Below, one piece after another: positions 24,045-35,478 of a stretch of DNA of 64,000 nt. Each line of letters begins with the position of its first letter. The stretch's first letter is position 1. The position numbers and the translations under genes were made by a program. Source of the DNA: Candidatus Bathyarchaeota archaeon (lineage in GTDB: Archaea > Thermoproteota > Bathyarchaeia > Bathyarchaeales > Bathycorpusculaceae); assembly GCA_963826715.1 (NCBI GenBank), contig CAWGYA010000008.1, positions 608,001-672,000 of the forward strand, read 5' to 3'. The notes beneath the pieces were generated by a model that saw only the letters and a program-made list of their open reading frames with translations, had not been told where the DNA came from and did not search any database.

Positions 24045-24200
24045 TACAGTTCACTTGTAGATAAGTTGGTTAACCTATTTAACAATCTGATTAATAGTGT
24101 TAGCTTTGCGGAGACCGATTTTTCAGCTACATTTTTCTATGAGAATCACATTACCAAAGGCGACGAGTTATCTATCCCAAAAGTTATGGTAGGATACTGC

Positions 24201-25424
24201 ATGGTTGAAAACATCAAAGAACTTCTTAAACTTCATGAAGGCATCACTCATGAAGTGTACTTAGATAACGAAAACAGCACCATCGTCCCCCAAGAAGTCG
24301 TTGACTCCATGGCGCCTTACTGGAGCAAAAAAGCCTACGGCAACCCCACGCTAACCCATAAGCCCGGCTGGGAAGCGTTTGAAACCATCATGGGCTGCTT
24401 CGCCAAAATCAGCAAGTATATCGGCGCCAAGAACCTCGAAGAAATCACCTTTACACCGGGCGAAACCGAATCCAACAACTTAGCAATCATGGGTGCATGC
24501 TTCGCACAGAAAACCAAAGGTAAAAAAATCATCATCAGCGAAATCGAACCCATCAACGTCTTGCAGGTCGCCGAGATGATGACTAAATTTGGGTTTCTAA
24601 CCACCAAAATCCCCGTGGATCACGAAGGATTCATCAACCTGGAAAAGCTAAATGAAGCAGTCGATAACGACACCATCCTCGTAAGTATATCAGCGGTTAA
24701 CAATGAACTGGGCACAATCCAGCCTATCAAGGAAGCTGTTGACATCGTGAAAGCCAAAAACCCCCAAGCGCTCTTCCATACCGACACCTCCGACGCATAC
24801 GCCAGAATCCCCCTAAACGTGCAGGACCTCAATGTGGACATGGCAACTGCGAGCAGCTTTAAAATTCAGGGACCACGAGGAATCGGCGCATTTTACCTCA
24901 AAGATGGCGTAAACCTCGAACGCATCATAGAAGGTCCAATCGGAACACAGAAGCTCTGGCCAGGCATAGAGAACACCCCGCTAATTGTGGGTTTCACTAA
25001 AGCATCTGAGCTTGCCTTCACCAACTTCGACGTTAATGTTACCAAGATGAGTATGCTCCGTGACAAGCTGGTCGATGGCATATTCTCTGAACTTACCGAT
25101 TTACGCTTCAATGGACCCAAAGATGAAAAGCGCAGCCCCGACAACGCTAACATAAGCATCCTCCGAGCCGAAGGTGAAGCCTTAACAATCGAACTGAGCC
25201 TCAAAGGAGTCTATGTGTCCAGCGGAAGTGCCTGCAGCCGCCGCCTGCTCCAGCCCAGCCATGTACTTATTGCCATCGGACGCATCTTCGAGGAAGCCCA
25301 CGGCAGCATCCTTATGAAGGTCACGCGTAACCAAACAGAAGAGGATATAGCTTACGTATTGGAAGTTTTACCTACAGCTGTGAACCGTATCCGAAGGATA
25401 GTTGGCTCAACAGGAGTGCATTAA
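24201..25424 (+). CDS. IscS/NifS-fold protein with degenerate PLP site (group I desulfurase-like)
   Basis: YLDN, YGNP, TESNN, NNELGTIQP, KIQGPRGIG, SSGSACS and PSHVL are present, but many PLP/substrate residues are substituted (see findings). Confidence 0.85.
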   Translation: MVENIKELLKLHEGITHEVYLDNENSTIVPQEVVDSMAPYWSKKAYGNPTLTHKPGWEAFETIMGCFAKISKYIGAKNLEEITFTPGETESNNLAIMGACFAQKTKGKKIIISEIEPINVLQVAEMMTKFGFLTTKIPVDHEGFINLEKLNEAVDNDTILVSISAVNNELGTIQPIKEAVDIVKAKNPQALFHTDTSDAYARIPLNVQDLNVDMATASSFKIQGPRGIGAFYLKDGVNLERIIEGPIGTQKLWPGIENTPLIVGFTKASELAFTNFDVNVTKMSMLRDKLVDGIFSELTDLRFNGPKDEKRSPDNANISILRAEGEALTIELSLKGVYVSSGSACSRRLLQPSHVLIAIGRIFEEAHGSILMKVTRNQTEEDIAYVLEVLPTAVNRIRRIVGSTGVH

Positions 25425-25428
25425 AAAG

Positions 25429-25938
25429 ATGTCACGTATACCCTTACCCTATAACCCTAAGGTTATGGATTTGTTCCGTAACCCCAAAAACCTAGGCAAA
25501 ATGGAGGACGCAACCGTTGTCGCTATAGCAGGCAACCCTGCATGTGGAGACATGATAACCTTCTACCTTAAAATCAACCAGGAAACGCAAGTTATCGAGA
25601 AAGCTCAGTTTGAAAGCTACGGATGCGCCGCCAACATCGCCACTAGCAGCATAGTTACCGAAATGATAAGAGGCTTAACGCTGGAAATAGCATGGAAAGA
25701 CATAACATGGAAAAAAGTTACCGAGGAAATCGGTGGCTTACCCAGCGTCAAGTTCCACTGTGGAGTCCTTGCAGTCGGCGCCCTCAAACGTGCAATACGC
25801 CAATACTTCACCGAGAAAGGCATTGCCGTACCCAGCTGGTTGCCAGCAGAACACACCTTTGAAGAGAAGCAGGCATTAGAAGAAGAGGAACTGGCAAAGA
25901 CCCTTTCGAAGAGGCTAAAACCTGAGGCAGAAAAGTAA
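25429..25938 (+). CDS. iscU: Fe-S cluster scaffold IscU/NifU-N
   Basis: YNPKVMDLFRNPKNLG, GNPACGD, YGCAA, LPSVKFHC. Confidence 0.93.
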   Translation: MSRIPLPYNPKVMDLFRNPKNLGKMEDATVVAIAGNPACGDMITFYLKINQETQVIEKAQFESYGCAANIATSSIVTEMIRGLTLEIAWKDITWKKVTEEIGGLPSVKFHCGVLAVGALKRAIRQYFTEKGIAVPSWLPAEHTFEEKQALEEEELAKTLSKRLKPEAEK

Positions 25939-25940
25939 CC

Positions 25941-27167
25941 TTGGATATTGAAGCAATTCGCCGAGATTTCCCGATTCTACAGCGCAAAGTTAACGGCAAA
26001 CCCCTAATTTATTTTGACAACGCTGCCACTACCCAGAAGCCACGCCAAGTCATAGATGCCATAAGCGACTACTACCAAAATCACAATGGCAATGTCCACC
26101 GTGCCGTCCACACACTGAGCATGGAGGCAACAGATCTCTATGAGAAAGCACGGGAGCGAATCGCAGAATTCATAAACGCTCATTCAGCAAGCGAAATCGT
26201 ATTTGTCCGAGGCACAACCGAAGCCATCAACCTAGCCGCGTATTCTTGGGGGTTGAGCACCCTCGGTGCCGGTGACGAAGTTTTGGTATCACGTATGGAG
26301 CACCACAGCAACATCGTGCCATGGGAACTCACTGCAAAAATTCGAGGCTTCACCGTAAAATACGCTAATGTCAATAGTGACGGTACTCTTGACTACGAAG
26401 ACTTCGAGAACAAAATTACAAATAAAGTCAAAATCTGCTGCCTTAGCCACGTCTCAAACGTCACAGGTGTCATCAATGACGTTAAACGCGTAACCAAAGT
26501 CGCCCACGACCACGGCGCTTTGATGCTGGTTGACGGAGCCCAATCGGTACCTCACATGCCTGTGGATGTACAGGATATCGAAATGGATTTCCTCGCGTTC
26601 TCCGGGCATAAAATGCTCGGGCCCACAGGCATCGGCGTACTCTATGGTAAAAAAGAGGTTCTCGAGAGCATGCCACCTTTTGAGGGGGGTGGCGAAATGA
26701 TAAAAGAAGTCTCTGTCACCCAAAACAAATGCAGCATCTCTTGGAATGAGTTACCATGGAAGTTTGAAGCAGGAACGCCCAACATTTCAGGCGCTGTGGG
26801 CTTAGGTGCCGCGGTGGAGTACCTGCAGGATTTACGCATCGAGGATGTATTTAGTCATGAGCGGGAACTCATCGAATACGCGTATCGACGTATGGCGGAA
26901 TGCAAAAAAGCAACCGCTTACGGCCCTATCGACTTGTCGCAGAAATGCGGAATAATCGCCTTCAGCGTCAGCGGATTCTCCTCTCATGATGTTGCACTTT
27001 TTTTTGACACTTACGGCGTAGCTATGCGCAGCGGTTACCACTGTGCCCAGCCCCTGCATGAGTTCTTTAAGCTGCAATCCTCCACAAGAGCCAGTTTTTA
27101 CCTATATAATACCAAAGAGGAAATTGATCGCTTCGTAGAAATTCTCAAGGAGTTCGATAAATTCTAA
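25941..27167 (+). CDS. sufS: Cysteine desulfurase, SufS/CsdA (group II)
   Basis: IRRDFPIL, FDNAATTQKP, EHHSN, DGAQ, SGHKM, EAGTPN, RSGYHCAQP, RASFY. Confidence 0.93.
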   Translation: MDIEAIRRDFPILQRKVNGKPLIYFDNAATTQKPRQVIDAISDYYQNHNGNVHRAVHTLSMEATDLYEKARERIAEFINAHSASEIVFVRGTTEAINLAAYSWGLSTLGAGDEVLVSRMEHHSNIVPWELTAKIRGFTVKYANVNSDGTLDYEDFENKITNKVKICCLSHVSNVTGVINDVKRVTKVAHDHGALMLVDGAQSVPHMPVDVQDIEMDFLAFSGHKMLGPTGIGVLYGKKEVLESMPPFEGGGEMIKEVSVTQNKCSISWNELPWKFEAGTPNISGAVGLGAAVEYLQDLRIEDVFSHERELIEYAYRRMAECKKATAYGPIDLSQKCGIIAFSVSGFSSHDVALFFDTYGVAMRSGYHCAQPLHEFFKLQSSTRASFYLYNTKEEIDRFVEILKEFDKF

Positions 27168-27436
27168 TGTCTACCGTAGCCGACTACGTTTCACGCCTTG
27201 AAGGTACCTGCGGCGCCGAAAGCGATGTTATCGTCAACTTCAAGTACGAAAAAAAAGATGAAGTCATAGCCCACATCCTTAAAAAAGCCACCTTGAAGAA
27301 TACACTAGCGGGAATAATTTTTGAGTTAACTTTTGAGAATGTGTCTTTTCGGCTCTATACCAGCGGCAAAGCCATATTCCGTGGCTTCCGAAGCAAAACA
27401 GAGCTTATGGATTTCTTAGCAAAGCTTTTGCTTTAA
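27167..27436 (+). CDS. Small hypothetical protein (TCG motif; resembles the C-terminal domain of long MoeB/ThiF proteins)
   Basis: Translationally coupled to sufS (TAATG). Contains GTCG and FRLYTSGKAIFRG followed by a helix. Confidence 0.65.
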   Translation: MSTVADYVSRLEGTCGAESDVIVNFKYEKKDEVIAHILKKATLKNTLAGIIFELTFENVSFRLYTSGKAIFRGFRSKTELMDFLAKLLL

Positions 27437-27769: not shown

Positions 27770-29254
27770 TTAATTTTTCAAGGCGAATTTTACGCGGACT
27801 TTAGTTCTGCTAACCCAGTTTGCTAATGGGAGAAGCTGGTACTTGATAAAATCTGGCATCGAGTCTTTGAGTTCCCGATGCAGCCCCAGTTTAATAGCAA
27901 ACCTCCCCTTTGGAGTAAGGGGAATAAAGTAGCGGGCTACTGGATATTTGACAAAGCCGTTGTTCACTTTGAATTTATCAAGAGAGGGATGATTCCCCAT
28001 TCGTCCATACATTAACCAACGTTCTCTTTTGAATGCACAAACCTCGACCGCTTTGGCTAGGAGCGCATTATTAACAGATTGATCTCGGTACTTCTGCATT
28101 GAAAGGATATTTGAGAGGATGGCGACGTTGTCGCCATGCAGTATCTGGATAAAACCTGCCATTTCCTCACCAATATAGGCACCGATAAAGGTAGATTCTT
28201 TTTCTGCATAAATATTCGCTGACACAGTTTCCATTGTTTCACCGTAATGTGGGAAAGCACGTCCCTGCCTAATCGGCGTTTCATTATAGACCCGATAGAT
28301 ACCTTCAGCTAACTTTTCATTCTGCGGCAAAACTTCTAACTTCACGCCGTCCCGCTCAGCTTTCCGTATTAAGTTGCGGGTTTTTTTTCCAACCAATTTC
28401 ATCCAAGAAAGGTAATCGTTGATTTCGAGCAACGCGATGTTATCTTGCGATTTTACCCATGCCAGTGAGGGCTTAGAAATAGGGCAACACCATCTGCGTT
28501 CGATGAAGGTGAAGACGTCGATTCCTCTTTCACTCAGCTTAGATAGAAAGTATGGAGAAGGATTGATTTTTTTGTGATATTCCCTGAAATCCCGCGCTAT
28601 TTTAACTGAAACCGCCTTACGAATTCTAACCGCCTCTATGTCATTATCGACGTCTAGCATAGTCTTCAATACATCGTAGTAGGCACCTCGTTGAGTTCGT
28701 ACCGTTTGATTAAATAACCAATCAGGATGAATTGACATCACTATATCTTCGTGCACAAAAGTCTCAGTTTCCTTGAGTGCCCCCTCATAACCATATAGAT
28801 AACGTTCTCTATCTAAACTCATGGTTTTAAAGTCATGAAAGGAAATCAACGGAAACTCTTTGGGAATTACTGGCTGGGCTTCGCTGAGTTTGCGTCCCCA
28901 AAGAAGTTGGTTAAGAAATCCTGCGGTTCCATGCATAGTGTAGTACTTAATTTTTCGGTTGGTTTTTTCTTCAAGCATCCGCCACTCACGAAAGGGTTGG
29001 GTTGCCACATGGAGCGCCACTTCATGTCGCACTTCGCCCAACAAATTGAGCAACCTTTGATCAGGAATTGTATAATGAGTAAAAAACCAGTAGGCTTTAA
29101 CTTCTTTTTGGGACTCGTTAATCATTTGTGCAATGATACGTGCATTCTTAAGGTAATCAGTACCTCTTGTACTTTTAACCCGTAGGGCTATGCTCAAGAA
29201 ACTTTTTGGTCTTGAAGTGTAGGGGTAGTCAACGTCAATTCTTAGCGTTATCAT
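27770..29254 (-). CDS. Polysaccharide-deacetylase-like domain fused to a GNAT/FemAB-like domain
   Basis: N-terminal LRIDVD, EVALH, TMHG, SIHPDW; C-terminal KKTRNLIRKAERDGV, NNALLAKAVE, LDKFKVNNGF. Start is more likely ATG 29254. Confidence 0.65.
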   Translation of the reverse strand: MITLRIDVDYPYTSRPKSFLSIALRVKSTRGTDYLKNARIIAQMINESQKEVKAYWFFTHYTIPDQRLLNLLGEVRHEVALHVATQPFREWRMLEEKTNRKIKYYTMHGTAGFLNQLLWGRKLSEAQPVIPKEFPLISFHDFKTMSLDRERYLYGYEGALKETETFVHEDIVMSIHPDWLFNQTVRTQRGAYYDVLKTMLDVDNDIEAVRIRKAVSVKIARDFREYHKKINPSPYFLSKLSERGIDVFTFIERRWCCPISKPSLAWVKSQDNIALLEINDYLSWMKLVGKKTRNLIRKAERDGVKLEVLPQNEKLAEGIYRVYNETPIRQGRAFPHYGETMETVSANIYAEKESTFIGAYIGEEMAGFIQILHGDNVAILSNILSMQKYRDQSVNNALLAKAVEVCAFKRERWLMYGRMGNHPSLDKFKVNNGFVKYPVARYFIPLTPKGRFAIKLGLHRELKDSMPDFIKYQLLPLANWVSRTKVRVKFALKN

Positions 29255-29336
29255 TGCATCGTCAATTGTCAACCTATGAGGGCTAATTTTGGTTATAAAC
29301 CCTCCTAATGAGTAAAACTTTTTCCCTCTCTCTATT

Positions 29337-30827
29337 TTAGGGTCGAACATCTATGGCATAGCGTGATGCCCCTAAAATTAATCCATTGGAATGGATACCC
29401 AACATGCAAACTTGCCGACCAATTTCATCAACGCCTTCGCCGTACCCGTTAGAATAGCTATAATACATACCATAGAACATCTTCTCGACGTAACTGGACA
29501 TGTTCTTAGCAAAAACTGTATTATAAACGGCGAGGAAACCAAAAGCTACCTTCGTGTAAATAACAGATGAACTGTTGACTACGTTATTCGCGCCGTCCAG
29601 AATTGTCCATGTTCGCCCATCAGACAAAACAACCCATTCCCACTGCCAACTCGAGTCAACCGAGGACCCTTCACCGAAGGCATGATATTTTCCAGTTTGT
29701 TGATAATAGTTTTCGTGCGCTTGATATATTTTATTGACTAAATCTGTTAATCTGTCATTTTGAGGTGTTTCAAAAAAAACACTTAGCAGCACATCACTTG
29801 TAAGGGACGCCTGAGGCAAATTGAGGCCATTGACCGTTACTGTACCTGAAGAATAAATGTTGTCAAGGATATTTGACGTGGCACCCGAAAGCTGCTCTGG
29901 CCAGAAACTTGCAAACCCACTTGCTACATAATACGCATAGATGCTCTTTGACGTCAGGCTTTCAGCTTGTATACTTGGAACCAATCCTTCGTAGTTCGAT
30001 CTGTTATCGTAGACATTGTAAATTAGGTTATTGATACGAGTTGCGTTGATTGGAGAATAATTTCTTAGGTTGTTGTATGCAACAAGTAGTCTACCAGTAT
30101 CAGCGACGTCAACAACAAAATTTGGAACATCAGAGTTATCATGGAAGACCCCTCCGTCATCAGACTGATAAAACCAGTATGGGTAACTTGCATTGTCCAG
30201 TTCACGGGTTTCACAGAAGGTCAAAACTTTATCTATCCTATCATTGAATCCCCATGCACCATCTTTCGTAATTATTCCAATTTTTGAAGCATCTATAGTT
30301 GCTTGAATATAAACTCCCAAATCCCAATCTGTAAAATACGGATAAGCGTTGCCTGATAGTGGAAGTCCAGTTTTGCTGTTGACACCGTATCCTGGTCTTA
30401 AATAGTTCCATGCATTAGCTGCGACCTCCCGCCAAACAGAACTATTCATTGCTTGGGCGCCTTCAATTGGGCCAAGTTTTCTACTGATTATGGCAGAGTT
30501 TATGGTTTTGCCAGCATCTTGGATCAGTTTCCCCAAATCGCCAAGCGGATTGCTTTGGGGAGGTGGAGTAGTGTTTGTTGTTTGCTGAGTTGTTGTGGGT
30601 GTAGGTGTAACAGTTGGCTGTGGCTCTGCTCTGTCCCCCTTAGGAAGAAATGCCACTGTTGGAAGCAAAATCACCGCTATCAAAATAATTGCGATAAGAA
30701 TTTTTTCTTTTCGGTTTAGCTTCCACGTTTTAGGATTGAAAGCACTTCCTTTGTTTTCAGGGATAGGTGGCGTTTGTACTGTTTCTATAATTTTTCTGTG
30801 AAAATATCGAAATTTCCTAAAACGCAC
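29337..30827 (-). CDS. Membrane-anchored DUF3131 family (alpha/alpha-barrel glycoside hydrolase-like) protein
   Basis: N-terminal TM helix and Thr/Pro linker; AANAWNY, NSKTGLP, TDWDLG, DTGRLLV, TKVAFG, N.LIL.A. Confidence 0.75.
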   Translation of the reverse strand: MRFRKFRYFHRKIIETVQTPPIPENKGSAFNPKTWKLNRKEKILIAIILIAVILLPTVAFLPKGDRAEPQPTVTPTPTTTQQTTNTTPPPQSNPLGDLGKLIQDAGKTINSAIISRKLGPIEGAQAMNSSVWREVAANAWNYLRPGYGVNSKTGLPLSGNAYPYFTDWDLGVYIQATIDASKIGIITKDGAWGFNDRIDKVLTFCETRELDNASYPYWFYQSDDGGVFHDNSDVPNFVVDVADTGRLLVAYNNLRNYSPINATRINNLIYNVYDNRSNYEGLVPSIQAESLTSKSIYAYYVASGFASFWPEQLSGATSNILDNIYSSGTVTVNGLNLPQASLTSDVLLSVFFETPQNDRLTDLVNKIYQAHENYYQQTGKYHAFGEGSSVDSSWQWEWVVLSDGRTWTILDGANNVVNSSSVIYTKVAFGFLAVYNTVFAKNMSSYVEKMFYGMYYSYSNGYGEGVDEIGRQVCMLGIHSNGLILGASRYAIDVRP

Positions 30828-30974: not shown

Positions 30975-32105
30975 TCAAGTTTCCATTACTATTTTTAGGT
31001 GTTGCCAAATACCATTTTCGAAATTATCAGGAGTCAACGCCTCAATTCTGTGCCACAGTTCCCTTCTCATAACATCCCAGCTTGGATTATTCATATTAGT
31101 AACTATTTTCTGTTTTAAATCATCATAAGTGTTCCAGCGGAATGCCTCAGGGATAAACTCTCTCATACCGCCGCTGTCATGAACCAAAGTAACGCATCCG
31201 CTTGCCAACCCCTCAACTGGTGCAATACCGAAGTGTTCGGCCTCCATAAGATGTACATATATACGACTGTCATGGAGGATCTTGAGGAGTTCTGGTCCTG
31301 GCAGGTTGGGTTTGACGACATAGTTTCGGGGAAGGTTCTGGGAGAAATTTTCAAACCATTTTTTCTCTGCGTCTATCAAACCACCAACGCTAATGAAGTC
31401 GTATGCCGGCAAATCCAAAGCCAGTTTTTTGAGTATTTCGTGTCTTTTTATGGGGATAAAGCGCGCGGTATAAACAACTCTCTTCCGACGGGTTTCCAAA
31501 GATGTTTCACACCAGAATAAATGTAAATTAATCGGCGGATAAACTACAATAGGTTCTTTCACTCCATAGCTTTTCCAATAACGTATTATTGCTTCCTTCG
31601 TGTATTCGCTGTTGCAAAACACAAGGTCCAGCTTGCCAATACCCTGCTCAACCCAATGTTTAAACAGCCACAAGTACAGTTTTCTTTTAAATGCTCCTTT
31701 GGCGTAGTCAAAATGGATTTCTGGAAAATGAACATACGCAAAGTTCTTTCTGGCCTGGTTTAAGAAAATTGGTTCAAAGGGTGAAGATGATTGTGTAGAG
31801 AAAAGATAATCATATTTTAAAACATCACGATATCTTTTGAGAAGTCTAACTAAGTTGCGGTGTCGCTTATAAATGGTGAAGGGTGGTTCAACTTCTATAC
31901 GTTTCCCCAACGAGTGGATATGAACTTCTTTAGGAAATTCATCACCTACTATTTCCTTGTACCTTTCAGAGTCAAAATCAAAAGTTAACAATTCAACATC
32001 TTGCCCTTTACTAATTAGGGTTTTTATTACGTTGTGGCAAACGCGTTCACCGCCACCATAGATATCCAAGTATGGGTGGACAACAAGGAAAGTTGCCATA
32101 GTCAT
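30975..32105 (-). CDS. Glycosyltransferase family 4 (Alg11-like)
   Basis: GGGERV, YVHFP, CNSEYT, VVYPP, ARF...KRH, EHFGIAPVEGLASG, HDSGG. Confidence 0.9.
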   Translation of the reverse strand: MTMATFLVVHPYLDIYGGGERVCHNVIKTLISKGQDVELLTFDFDSERYKEIVGDEFPKEVHIHSLGKRIEVEPPFTIYKRHRNLVRLLKRYRDVLKYDYLFSTQSSSPFEPIFLNQARKNFAYVHFPEIHFDYAKGAFKRKLYLWLFKHWVEQGIGKLDLVFCNSEYTKEAIIRYWKSYGVKEPIVVYPPINLHLFWCETSLETRRKRVVYTARFIPIKRHEILKKLALDLPAYDFISVGGLIDAEKKWFENFSQNLPRNYVVKPNLPGPELLKILHDSRIYVHLMEAEHFGIAPVEGLASGCVTLVHDSGGMREFIPEAFRWNTYDDLKQKIVTNMNNPSWDVMRRELWHRIEALTPDNFENGIWQHLKIVMET

Positions 32106-32238
32106 AACCTCTAGTTTATTATATAATGCATGTTATCAATTTTTAGAAATAAAAGCGTGTTGTGTGTGAATAAATATCAAATTAAATACAGAAGGCTTAC
32201 ATATAGAACCCTTTGGAGAATAACTTAAAGGTGCCGTC

Positions 32239-33207
32239 TTGCAAGACCAAAAAAGTGTAACAATAATCATTGTTAACTGGAATCAAAAAAAGTGTTTAGA
32301 CACCTGTCTGACCTCAATAAAGAGCAAAACAAACTACAAAAAATTTCATACAGTTGTAATTGATAATGGTAGCACTGACGGTTCTCCTCAGATGGTTAGA
32401 GAAAAATTTGCTCGGGATCATTTGGTTGTTTTCGATAAAAACTATGGTTTCTCTATCGGCAACAACAATGGCATAATTTATGCGCTTAAAAAGTTCAATC
32501 CCGACTATTTGTTGCTTCTAAATAATGATACGGAGATAATTCAGTCAGATTGGCTAAACAAACTGGTTCTTGCTGTGGAGTCCACTCCAAATGTGGGAAT
32601 TGTAGGCTGTAAACTCGTTTACCCTAATGGAAAAACACAATACATAGGCACGGAAATGACCGTTCAAGGCTTGTCATGGATTAACCCAGAAACCGAATGT
32701 AAATACCCCCGGGCTTTTGACGTTACTGCGGTTCTTGGCGCTTGTTTCTTAATCAAAAGAGAAGTTATCGAAAAAATAGGTTTTTTAGATATCGGGTTTT
32801 CTCCTTTTGTACATGAAGAATCAGACTATTGTATCAGAGCTAGGAAGGCAGGTTACCGTATTCGTATAATACTCGATGCTGTTGTGATTCATCAGTGGAA
32901 AACGTCAATCGCAACAGTAAACTCAGCACGGTTACAATACATTGTCAGGCGGAATTTTCTCAGGTTTATGCTGCTAAACTTCCCTCTCACTTGGCTTGTT
33001 CGGCGAACAAAGACTGAGGCTAGAATTCTAATTGGATGTTTTATAACGAGAAATAAAGGAGGAGTTGCTCCTGTCAAACTACGAAGTGGCAAAGATTTTC
33101 TTGAAAGGTTAAAAATTAATTCTTACAGTTGGTTGTACAATCTGAAGCGGTTACGTGAGATAATATCAAAACGTCGAAATAGAACAAAAAAACTGCCTCC
33201 GGTATAA
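32239..33207 (+). CDS. Glycosyltransferase family 2
   Basis: IIIVNWN, VIDNGSTDGS, NYGFSIGNN, LLNND, GACFLI, EESDYC. Confidence 0.92.
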   Translation: MQDQKSVTIIIVNWNQKKCLDTCLTSIKSKTNYKKFHTVVIDNGSTDGSPQMVREKFARDHLVVFDKNYGFSIGNNNGIIYALKKFNPDYLLLLNNDTEIIQSDWLNKLVLAVESTPNVGIVGCKLVYPNGKTQYIGTEMTVQGLSWINPETECKYPRAFDVTAVLGACFLIKREVIEKIGFLDIGFSPFVHEESDYCIRARKAGYRIRIILDAVVIHQWKTSIATVNSARLQYIVRRNFLRFMLLNFPLTWLVRRTKTEARILIGCFITRNKGGVAPVKLRSGKDFLERLKINSYSWLYNLKRLREIISKRRNRTKKLPPV

Positions 33208-33313
33208 CATCAAAAATTTAGACAAGTTCTCCTGTAATCTTTTTGCGGGTAGCAAGATATATACGGCTGCAAGAAAAGTGGTACTATAATTGGTTTCAGG
33301 AACGCAGAAAAAC

Positions 33314-34705
33314 ATGGTGCCCAAAGAAAGAAAGCTTAAAGTGGTTTTTGCTGACCCGCCGTTTGACAGGACATCTAAAGGGGAAGCGGTGACAGAATCA
33401 CCGAATTTGGGCATCCTCTACCTCATCAGCTACGTCAAACCTCGACTTCAAAATATAGAGTACGTTTACTTGGAGCCGTTCCTCTCGATGGAAGAGCATA
33501 TCGCGAAGATTCGAGAAATTCAGCCTGATGTGTATGCTATTTCATTTACTACTCCGCGGCGCAACCTTGCATTTGAGACAATAGCGAAGGTTAAAGCCTT
33601 AGGTTTACCAATGCTTTTGGTTGCGGGCGGAGCTCATCCGACAATCGATCCCCAAGATGTTCTTAAAAACACACCTATTGAAGTTTGTATTTTAGGTGAG
33701 GGGGAAGATACCTTAAATGAACTTCTCGAGGCGGTCCAAGCTGGGGAATCCATACTTGACATAAATGGAACAGTCAACAAGCGCAAAAACAATGGTATCC
33801 GACCGCTTCTAAAAGATATCGACTTTTTTCCAGCATGGGAAATGATTGACTTCAAAAACTATGACATTGCAGTCAGCAAAAAGCGACGCATGGCATATCT
33901 ACTTCCAATACGTGGCTGTCCCAATTATTGCACCTACTGCAGCAATCCCGTATGGAAACTCGAAAAACCTTGGATGCGGAAACGATCACCGAAAAACATC
34001 GCTGAAGAAGTCGCTTATTTATACGATCGGGGAATTCGCGAAATTTACTTGCGTTCTGACACCTTTAACGTGGATATCAAATGGTGTCTACAGGTATGTG
34101 ACGAAATCGAGAAACTTCAACTTAAAGAAATGGTATTCCAATGTAACCTCCGAGCTGACAAACTCAACGACGAGCTTGCCCATAGGCTTAATGACATTCA
34201 TGTGTGGCTTGTTCACATAGGTCTAGAATCCGCAAATGATCGCGTCCTCAAAGGTATCGGCAAGAATGCCACACAAGCTGACAACCTTTGCACACTCCAA
34301 CTGCTGAAAAAGCACAAAATCAAAGTCTACGGTTTTTTGATGCTCTACAACGCATGGGAAGTCAATGGCAAACTCGAACACGAAACCCCAGAGGAAGTCA
34401 ACAACACTTTAGAGTTCGCGCGCACTTGCCTACGCGATAACTTGATAGAGTTCATTTCCTGGTCCATCACTAATCCCATTATTGGCTCTAAACTCCATGA
34501 TATTGCCAAACGCCACAACATCGCGACTCACAACGTAAAAATCGGCAACTGCATGCGCTTTCCAGATGTAAATGAGGAGCAGATGGTTGAGCACGTCAAG
34601 CAAGGCATGGTATTACAGCTACTCAACGGCATACAAAAAGGCATGATAACCAAGAAAAACTACAAACGCGCCGCTCAGAAAGCCACCAAAATCCTCAACT
34701 TGTAG
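33314..34705 (+). CDS. B12-binding radical SAM protein (class B methyltransferase-like)
   Basis: PNLGILYL, AGGAHPT, GEGE, RGCPNYCTYC (CxxxCxxC), GLESAN. Confidence 0.9.
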   Translation: MVPKERKLKVVFADPPFDRTSKGEAVTESPNLGILYLISYVKPRLQNIEYVYLEPFLSMEEHIAKIREIQPDVYAISFTTPRRNLAFETIAKVKALGLPMLLVAGGAHPTIDPQDVLKNTPIEVCILGEGEDTLNELLEAVQAGESILDINGTVNKRKNNGIRPLLKDIDFFPAWEMIDFKNYDIAVSKKRRMAYLLPIRGCPNYCTYCSNPVWKLEKPWMRKRSPKNIAEEVAYLYDRGIREIYLRSDTFNVDIKWCLQVCDEIEKLQLKEMVFQCNLRADKLNDELAHRLNDIHVWLVHIGLESANDRVLKGIGKNATQADNLCTLQLLKKHKIKVYGFLMLYNAWEVNGKLEHETPEEVNNTLEFARTCLRDNLIEFISWSITNPIIGSKLHDIAKRHNIATHNVKIGNCMRFPDVNEEQMVEHVKQGMVLQLLNGIQKGMITKKNYKRAAQKATKILNL

Positions 34706-34749
34706 TTGTCGTGGCAAACTTTTTAACTTTAGAGGAAAACATAACCACT

Positions 34750-35478
34750 ATGCCATCCTGCCCTGACTCTGATTTCAAAGTTGATTTTGTGATTCCTTCC
34801 CGGAATATTGCAAACCAGACCTTGCTTAACCAAATCAAGCAAATGCCATGCGCAGGAGATATCATAAACATCCATGAGAAGCCGCTGTCCGTGGCCCGCA
34901 AACACGGAGTTCTGGCAGCACAAACGGAGTGGGTTGCGATGGTAGACGACGATATGCTTCTGCCCAGTGACTGGCTTTTGAAAGTTACCAAAGCGATCGA
35001 GCCCAAGGTAGGCGCAATCGGTACCGTGGCAGTACACAAAAATCCACACGCTGCAGCATATGAACGGGTAGTTGGCACCATCTATAACCTAAGCAAACTC
35101 GACACTAATCCCCACATAAATAACATCATCATCCGCCGCAAACTCATGGAAAACTACAATCCACCCCCATTGTTCTTCGGTGAAGACCAAGTCTTCAAAC
35201 GATACGTCCAAAAAACAGGCTATCATTGGAAAGTTCTGCCATTTCTGGGCGCAACACATCTGGGCACATCTAAAAACTACGTAACCATTGGCATATCGTA
35301 TCGTCGCTATGGGCACTTCAGTCTCTTAAAATTATTTAGGCGGATTGTTGCCAGATTCATTTTTACTCCGTATGCCGCGATTTCTAATATGAGCCTCAAA
35401 ACTTTTATCTACCTGACGAAACTCAACATCGAATTCATCGCAGGCTGGACAAAAGAACTTACGATAGAAAAACAGTAG
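34750..35478 (+). CDS. Glycosyltransferase family 2-like (GT-A fold)
   Basis: VDFVIPS, ARKHG, WVAMVDDD (DxD), GED. Confidence 0.75.
   Translation: MPSCPDSDFKVDFVIPSRNIANQTLLNQIKQMPCAGDIINIHEKPLSVARKHGVLAAQTEWVAMVDDDMLLPSDWLLKVTKAIEPKVGAIGTVAVHKNPHAAAYERVVGTIYNLSKLDTNPHINNIIIRRKLMENYNPPPLFFGEDQVFKRYVQKTGYHWKVLPFLGATHLGTSKNYVTIGISYRRYGHFSLLKLFRRIVARFIFTPYAAISNMSLKTFIYLTKLNIEFIAGWTKELTIEKQ

Follow-up and report, generated by a model that had tools for sequence, protein, structure and literature searches.

An operon pairing a predicted non-catalytic IscS paralogue and an IscU scaffold with an intact SufS and a small one-Cys protein: a candidate iron-sulfur assembly route in Bathyarchaeia

In a Candidatus Bathyarchaeota genome (2.64 Mb, 96% complete), positions 24201-27436 of the 64,000-nucleotide (nt) window analysed here (G000:C8:608001-672000) carry an operon of four plus-strand genes, called as open reading frames (ORFs), which encode an IscS-type paralogue with a strongly altered active site (pIscS), an IscU-type scaffold (IscU2), an intact cysteine desulfurase (SufS) and a small protein with a single Cys (p89). 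We infer from its replaced motifs that pIscS is no longer a cysteine desulfurase, and we lean towards reading the operon as a four-component variant of the minimal IscS-IscU (MIS-type) system, in which SufS would provide sulfur, the small protein would relay it and pIscS would take part without catalysis. Bathyarchaeia are abundant, uncultured archaea of sediments and soils whose metabolism relies heavily on iron-sulfur (Fe-S) enzymes, and the layout looks like an undescribed, widespread route of Fe-S cluster assembly, in which parts of the iron-sulfur cluster (ISC) type and of the sulfur mobilization (SUF) type are mixed in nature. In the titles, abstracts and passages reached by literature search the layout is not described; Garcia et al. 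(2022), who defined MIS and the SUF-like minimal system (SMS), may already list the genes as MIS.

The four genes are tightly coupled, as the initial annotation of the window had stated, and the ORF and junction reading gives the same two gaps and one overlap. The TAA of pIscS is followed by 4 nt (AAAG) and the IscU2 ATG at 25429, the TAA of IscU2 (25936-25938) by 2 nt and the SufS TTG at 25941, and the TAA of SufS (27165-27167) overlaps the p89 ATG at 27167 (TAATG). Longer alternative starts exist for pIscS (TTG at 24066, ATG at 24186), and the start was kept at 24201 because orthologues begin at MVEN.

pIscS matches Pfam Aminotran_5 (E = 2.9e-53) and aligns with solved desulfurases in the Protein Data Bank (PDB), including 9wer_A (E = 6e-83), Archaeoglobus fulgidus IscS (4eb5_A, E = 5.9e-77) and Escherichia coli IscS (1p3w_B, E = 2.2e-58), and it falls under the NCBIfam equivalog cut-offs of both NifS (357.9 vs 530.75 bits) and IscS (286.9 vs 643.2 bits). 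In the PDB alignments it retains Lys221, Asp195, Ser219, Thr89, Asn167 and the loop SSGSAC with Cys345; from E. coli IscS we take Lys221 to be the Schiff-base Lys, Asp195 the Asp at the pyridine nitrogen of pyridoxal 5'-phosphate (PLP) and Cys345 the mobile-loop Cys. The same alignments place DNENST of pIscS opposite the canonical DHAATT (ENST for AATT), EIEP opposite EIEH, HTDTSDA opposite HTDAAQS, SSFK opposite SAHK or TAHK, LWPGIEN opposite VRAGTEN and GSILMK opposite GSVRFS. Pro117, Asp198, Phe/Tyr220, Trp253, Ile/Val256 and Leu371 of the pIscS family lie, respectively, at the H, Q, H, R, T and R of the solved enzymes, which presumably act, as in E. coli IscS, as the PLP-stacking His, the Gln at O3', the phosphate His, the Arg and Thr of RSGT and the Arg that holds the substrate carboxylate. 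Of what defines a catalytic type I desulfurase, pIscS has the fold, the homology and the Lys/Asp/Cys set, and lacks both the equivalog-level score and the His/Gln/His/Arg/Thr/Arg contacts. The earlier description of an IscS fold with the loop Cys and the Schiff-base Lys in place and the other PLP and substrate motifs replaced was thus upheld by alignment to both the E. coli and the A. fulgidus protein, every quoted motif being present in the translation, and it suggests that most of the expected PLP-phosphate and substrate contacts have been removed in the Bathyarchaeia pIscS clade. The nearest solved relatives of pIscS are 406-residue chains named 'cysteine desulfurase' (9wep/9wer/9wew/9wf8/9wfb/9wfe/9wfy), which vary among themselves at active-site residues and resemble a mutant series.

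These substitutions are fixed well beyond the window. Among the 120 nearest protein clusters at 90% identity (85-100% identical to pIscS), EIEP, Asp at the Gln position, LWPG, SGSAC and GSILMK occur in all 120, and SS[FY]K in at least 117, counted over the eight commonest forms listed. All 12 orthologues taken from other families of Bathyarchaeia (58-65% identical) read ENPDD[Y/F/N]KW[V/I/L]CL at eleven key positions, so that the survey of Bathyarchaeia proposed with the initial annotation returned the same pattern in near and distant relatives alike. Across 22 diverse orthologues, Lys221, Asp195 and Cys345 are invariant, and eight of the eleven pocket positions are invariant as against 106 of the 407 columns overall (hypergeometric P = 0.0014, a value that makes the case look stronger than it is, the sequences being related and their kinship uncorrected). 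As aligned, the substitution pattern is far beyond chance.

The loss of several catalytic motifs could also be taken to mean that pIscS is a decaying pseudogene or a functionless, relaxed duplicate, an explanation that we regard as practically untenable and that the conservation data already refute. The frame is intact, at 407 residues, in all 80 species loci compared (see below), where pIscS is better conserved (75-87% identity) than SufS (66-83%); one new, fixed pattern of substitutions runs through families as distant as about 50% identity, and the clade has a Shimodaira-Hasegawa-like (SH-like) support of 99. Random decay including loss of the loop Cys, which had been named as an outcome that would speak against the proposal, is not seen. 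Together, these data show a protein under strong purifying selection, in which the old contacts have been replaced by a new fixed set around an invariant loop Cys.

The support value comes from a quick FastTree of 147 IscS-type rows (those under 340 or over 460 residues excluded), which has SH-like support only and an arbitrary midpoint root. In this tree the clusters P0122 and then P0124 are successive sisters of the pIscS clade, the A. fulgidus-type clade with a Lys-to-Asp change (support 97) is separate from the pIscS group, and a third degenerate IscS-type group lies near the midpoint root. Read in this way, the tree shows at least three independent, predicted losses of catalysis among IscS-type proteins.

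The genetic setting of pIscS is likewise conserved. One genome per species was scanned, 433 genomes held a relative, and the best 80 of these 433 were used for loci. Of these 80 species genomes, 75 show the four genes in one and the same order, and in the remaining five the locus stops at a contig end before p89; pIscS adjoins IscU in all 80 close loci as well as in 12 distant Bathyarchaeia loci with an uncut pIscS gene. In a class sample of 301 Bathyarchaeia genomes p89 was present in 70, and it occurs in 47 of the 48 genomes of the window's own family. Around 16 distant p89 genes, pIscS, IscU2 and p89 stay side by side as far as contig ends permit, and it is SufS that moves: it lies between IscU2 and p89 in five loci (in one of them a contig start leaves only SufS-p89), upstream of pIscS in four, and convergent, downstream of p89, in two; it is absent from the fetched stretch of about 6 kb in another four, two of them on short contigs, and the last locus holds a lone p89 paralogue. 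The four-gene order expected from the initial annotation therefore holds in most of the best species genomes and does not hold as the unit of conservation: the conserved core is pIscS-IscU2-small Cys protein, around which the position of SufS shifts. At least three gene orders tie an intact SufS to this trio, and no SufS-type gene was found in two of the 70 p89 genomes.

The system extends beyond Bathyarchaeia, and a less degenerate form of it occurs across Thermoproteota. Representatives at 50% identity run from the query's own cluster down to P0122 (51% identical) and then to 46% or less; for one P0122 member the label gives a Desulfurococcaceae metagenome-assembled genome (MAG) as its source. 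A pIscS-type match at E <= 1e-100 was found in 99 of 401 sampled Thermoproteota genomes, and detail outside Bathyarchaeia comes from the twelve best loci with a 1.5-kb flank. There, the P0122-type IscS-like protein retains both His (xxEH, SSHK); ENSG is already in place, as is the replacement of Gln by Asp, of one Arg by Trp, of Thr by Val and of the other Arg by Leu. The protein adjoins an IscU2 with the same C-terminal tail as in Bathyarchaeia in all 12 loci, a one-Cys protein of 78-92 residues follows IscU2 directly in nine, and SufS lies within the flank in six. When seven of these small proteins were scanned, one was a clear TusA (E = 5.9e-15), three were weak TusA matches and three had no match. 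Thus, the slot after IscU2 is held by two apparently unrelated one-Cys proteins, p89 and a TusA-like protein.

By sequence, IscU2 is a complete scaffold and SufS an intact enzyme. IscU2 matches Pfam NifU_N (E = 5.8e-39) and has the three Cys, the Asp and the His of an IscU scaffold, its ligand set Cys39, Asp41, Cys66, His110 and Cys111 being invariant in 24 sequences, and it stays under the NCBIfam equivalog cut-offs (SufU, 60.5 vs 92.5 bits). Its C-terminal tail of about 40 residues is conserved (P.W[LM]P..T.EEKQALEEEEL) and is common to the Bathyarchaeia and the other Thermoproteota copies, whereas the other IscU of the genome (128 residues) has no such tail, which may serve as a docking element. 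SufS passes TIGR01979 (586.7 bits, cut-off 475.1) and has Bacillus subtilis SufS as its best PDB match (5j8q_A/5xt5_A, E about 9e-141; 5j8q_A, E = 8.6e-141) over residues 1-404. In this end-to-end alignment MEHH, VDGAQS, SGHK, EAGTP, RSGYHCAQP and TRAS are in place as in the B. subtilis enzyme, in agreement with the earlier claim that SufS keeps all its motifs.

The fourth protein, p89, had been put forward as a small Cys protein and proved to be one with a conserved Cys, in the slot that a TusA-like carrier holds elsewhere. It gave no Pfam or NCBIfam match above cut-off, DUF3378 (E = 0.0043) being below it, and no match to Pfam TusA (PF01206). There are 866 homologues at E <= 0.001, and the organism-named members among the best 120 of these 866 are of Bathyarchaeia type. 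In 26 diverse orthologues only Cys15, Gly16 and Leu88 are invariant. An AlphaFold2 model (mean predicted local distance difference test score 89.7) has the order strand-strand-helix-four strands-helix and places the single Cys15, in its Cys-Gly motif, in the loop of the first hairpin (strands 1-2). Foldseek returned nothing for this model at E <= 0.001 against the PDB, and the best hit of a wide VIA search was 1mp9_B (Z 5.9, rmsd 3.2, 79 aligned residues), in a range that is common according to the tool. ESM Atlas matches were unnamed Bathyarchaeota clusters and an 82-residue Thermoplasmatota cluster in which 20% of the members carry a TATA-box binding protein label (score 0.91). All of these fold matches serve as leads at most. 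Neither 'ribonuclease HIII' nor 'TATA-box binding protein', the names that JGI gives to p89 homologues, is supported as a function. In two of the 80 related MAGs the p89 gene is broken or frame-shifted (L031:9004-9243 and L047:8968-9240), perhaps by assembly error or true loss. A genome of the same genus (G157) has a diverged extra copy outside the operon (L101:6058-6327, on G157:C9), 40% identical and with the Cys-Gly kept; it lies downstream of a gene for a 531-residue protein with a weak molybdopterin-oxidoreductase match, which gives no functional clue.

Searches for SUFBD_core (SufB/SmsB) and SufE found neither in this genome; run on 14 named control genomes, they matched 14 and 5, respectively. 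The genome has only two IscU genes, and the full desulfurase motif set occurs only in the operon SufS and in DndA, the only IscS-type protein with full motifs, which is encoded in a DNA phosphorothioation (dnd) cluster (Table 1) that is adjoined by a helicase gene and a Schlafen/AlbA_2 gene. The second IscU belongs to an operon of the order TusA-IscS-IscU-DsrE-like, whose IscS is the orthologue of A. fulgidus IscS2 (4eb5_A, E = 9.5e-141) and has Asp for Lys (SSNDMYGPKG). In both IscS-IscU pairs of the genome the IscS is therefore predicted to be inactive, in a different way in each, and both pairs have neighbours of the sulfur-relay type. In the class, SUFBD_core is patchy (106 of 301 genomes; 7 of 14 congeners): it is present in 23 of the 70 genomes with p89, the other 47 having no recognisable SufB or SmsB. 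That the operon replaces SMS or SUF was considered as well and rejected, SUFBD_core being found in 23/70 genomes with p89 and in 83/231 without.

Table 1. Genes of the operon, their surroundings in the window, and two other sulfur-related loci of the genome. Plain numbers are window positions.
Feature	Position	Strand	Description
pIscS	24201..25424	+	407 aa (amino acids); IscS/NifS-type paralogue, class V aminotransferase fold
IscU2	25429..25938	+	169 aa; IscU-type scaffold
IscU2 C-terminal tail	25830-25938	+	conserved tail
SufS	25941..27167	+	408 aa; type II cysteine desulfurase, TTG start, catalytic motifs all there
p89	27167..27436	+	89 aa; one Cys, outside any curated family
526-aa gene	27770-29350		faint GNAT match; downstream of operon, near it in many related loci
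DUF3131 protein gene	29337-30827		downstream of operon
Glycosyltransferase genes	30975-35478		downstream of operon
Radical SAM gene	33290-34705		B12-binding; within the glycosyltransferase genes
dnd cluster	G000:C7:115546-121700 (L009:9543-15692)	-	dndB, dndC-like (PAPS reductase domain), dndD-like (SMC/AAA), dndE, dndA
Second IscS-IscU operon	G000:C8:1053900-1056400 (L010:8915-11380)	-	TusA-IscS-IscU-DsrE-like; IscU of 128 aa

A gene for a Hel308-type helicase is divergent from the operon, and genes on its downstream side lie on the opposite strand.

In the four-component reading that we favour, pIscS would be a dimeric platform that holds IscU2 without carrying out desulfuration, and its Cys345 would act as persulfide acceptor and/or as fourth cluster ligand, in line with a proposal made for A. 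fulgidus IscS. SufS would mobilise sulfur from cysteine, and the small Cys protein (p89, or the TusA-like protein in other Thermoproteota) would shuttle persulfide from SufS to pIscS-IscU2. In solved complexes IscU and SufU present the same Cys face to the desulfurase, and therefore IscU2 could not sit on pIscS and SufS at once. Where SufS is missing, sulfide would substitute, and the trio would probably work from environmental sulfide. The division of labour that had been put forward for the four genes is thus borne out in part, by the conservation of pIscS, the constant adjacency of IscU, the linkage of SufS in at least three orders and the invariant Cys-Gly of p89 in the slot of a TusA-like carrier, and has to be amended in that the four-gene block is not its core.

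Several observations weigh against a SufS-fed system. SufS is not always adjacent to the trio: G077 and G268 have their SufS-type genes at other places in the genome, and the search of G006 (94% complete) and G232 (92% complete) yielded none. SufS-type genes are common in the class (197 of 301 genomes), occurring in 68 of the 70 genomes with p89 and also in 129 of the 231 without it, and this co-occurrence is weak evidence, since relatives are not independent. In the 23 p89 genomes with SUFBD_core, SufS could serve a SufB/SmsB scaffold. Additionally, p89 shows next to no relation to the TusA-like proteins of the same slot (hhalign probability 0.13%). Most of these points would also fit a rival explanation, in which pIscS-IscU2-p89 builds clusters from free sulfide and SufS is merely co-located, acting in tRNA or cofactor thiolation or for SufBC/SMS and not feeding IscU2. 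Direct assembly from sulfide is what has been proposed for the A. fulgidus IscS-IscU pair, and SMS has been shown to work in this way. The available parts of PMC12192291 and PMC13066941 document the use of sulfide by minimal archaeal systems. We nevertheless consider this explanation unlikely, for SufS stands beside the trio in at least three independent arrangements, also in Thermoproteota other than Bathyarchaeia, its stop codon overlaps the p89 start at the window locus, and the 47 p89 genomes without SufB or SmsB, the window's included, show no such partner for it; nor was a SufE match obtained in the window's genome.

The second weakness of our reading concerns the pocket itself. PLP binding by pIscS is still conceivable, because Lys221, Asp195, Ser219 and Thr89 are retained; both His are kept in the relatives outside Bathyarchaeia, which makes cofactor binding plausible in this sister group; and the new pocket residues Glu24, Asn25, Ser26, Asp198 and Trp253 are invariant. 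Moreover, A. fulgidus IscS is inactive yet binds pyridoxamine 5'-phosphate (PMP), as stated in the accessible text of PMC8918507. It could be argued from this that pIscS is still an enzyme: the retained Lys, Asp, Ser and Thr would hold PLP or PMP, and the remodelled, acidic and aromatic pocket would take a substrate without an α-carboxylate or serve a different sulfur chemistry. We find this less probable still than the sulfide explanation: the Bathyarchaeia clade has Pro for the stacking His, Tyr, Phe or Asn for the phosphate His, and hydrophobic residues for the Thr and both Arg; pIscS scores far under every curated desulfurase cut-off, and an intact desulfurase is encoded alongside. Invariance of the pocket residues is no less to be expected of a new ligand site than of a dead pocket that has been filled in. 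We tentatively consider, as a possibility that goes further than the four-component reading and that we trust less, that the trio, with or without SufS, is a distinct and ancient Fe-S machinery of Thermoproteota at large, in which pIscS would be a persulfide or metal platform whose pocket (Glu24, Asn25, Ser26, Asp198, Trp253, Lys221) binds a new ligand such as iron or persulfide, and p89 a new family of persulfide carriers that took the place of TusA without homology to it. If this were true, such a machinery would be the main Fe-S route in many Bathyarchaeia without SufB/SmsB.

The operon offers a naturally occurring example of an IscS, predicted to be inactive, that is firmly tied to an active SufS and a one-Cys protein. 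The layout recurs in hundreds of species, with its genes in several orders, and therefore its sulfur route is directly testable with four small, soluble proteins. This bears on a question described as open in the available text of PMC8918507, namely the source of sulfur for archaeal IscS-IscU pairs whose IscS is inactive.

Among the closest known systems is the A. fulgidus IscS2-IscU pair (PDB 4eb5, 4hvk). Like pIscS, A. fulgidus IscS2 is an IscS-type protein that is predicted not to be a desulfurase, adjoins IscU and keeps the loop Cys. The accessible parts of the reports on it state that Asp replaces the Lys, that the protein binds PMP and is inactive (PMC8918507), and that it nonetheless gives a Cys ligand to the IscU cluster (PMC8918507, PMC7585200). 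The precedent invoked by the initial annotation is therefore sound as to inactivity and the Cys ligand, and it is a different case as to how activity was lost: A. fulgidus IscS2 lost the Lys (Asp199) and kept the other motifs, whereas pIscS kept the Lys and lost the others, in line with the separate clades of the two. Additionally, the text available to us mentions neither a SufS nor a p89-type gene with the A. fulgidus pair.

MIS, as characterised in the available parts of PMC13066941 and PMC12442378, consists of neighbouring IscS-like and IscU-like genes (MisS-MisU) of an anaerobic archaeon and does without chaperones and A-type carriers. The operon shares this adjacency and the lack of chaperones and carriers; however, MisS is described there as a desulfurase and MIS as having no further components, whereas the operon has an IscS-like protein with no predicted activity and, in addition, a type II SufS and a small Cys protein.

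Compared with the SufS-SufU and SufS-SufE pairs of SUF, the operon likewise has a full-motif SufS, nearest to the SufU-dependent enzyme of B. subtilis, with an IscU-family protein as its neighbour. It differs from SUF in that the genome shows no SufB/C/D scaffold and no SufE, and in that IscU2, unlike SufU, is of the IscU/NifU type, as its score below the SufU cut-off indicates, and keeps the scaffold His-Cys. Finally, the IscS-TusA relay resembles the sister operons of other Thermoproteota, in which a TusA-like protein with one Cys accompanies the IscS-like protein, and also the second operon of this genome, in which IscS-IscU is flanked by TusA and a DsrE-like gene; in the operon described here, however, p89 has no detectable relation to TusA, and sulfur is proposed to flow towards the IscS-like protein and not away from it.

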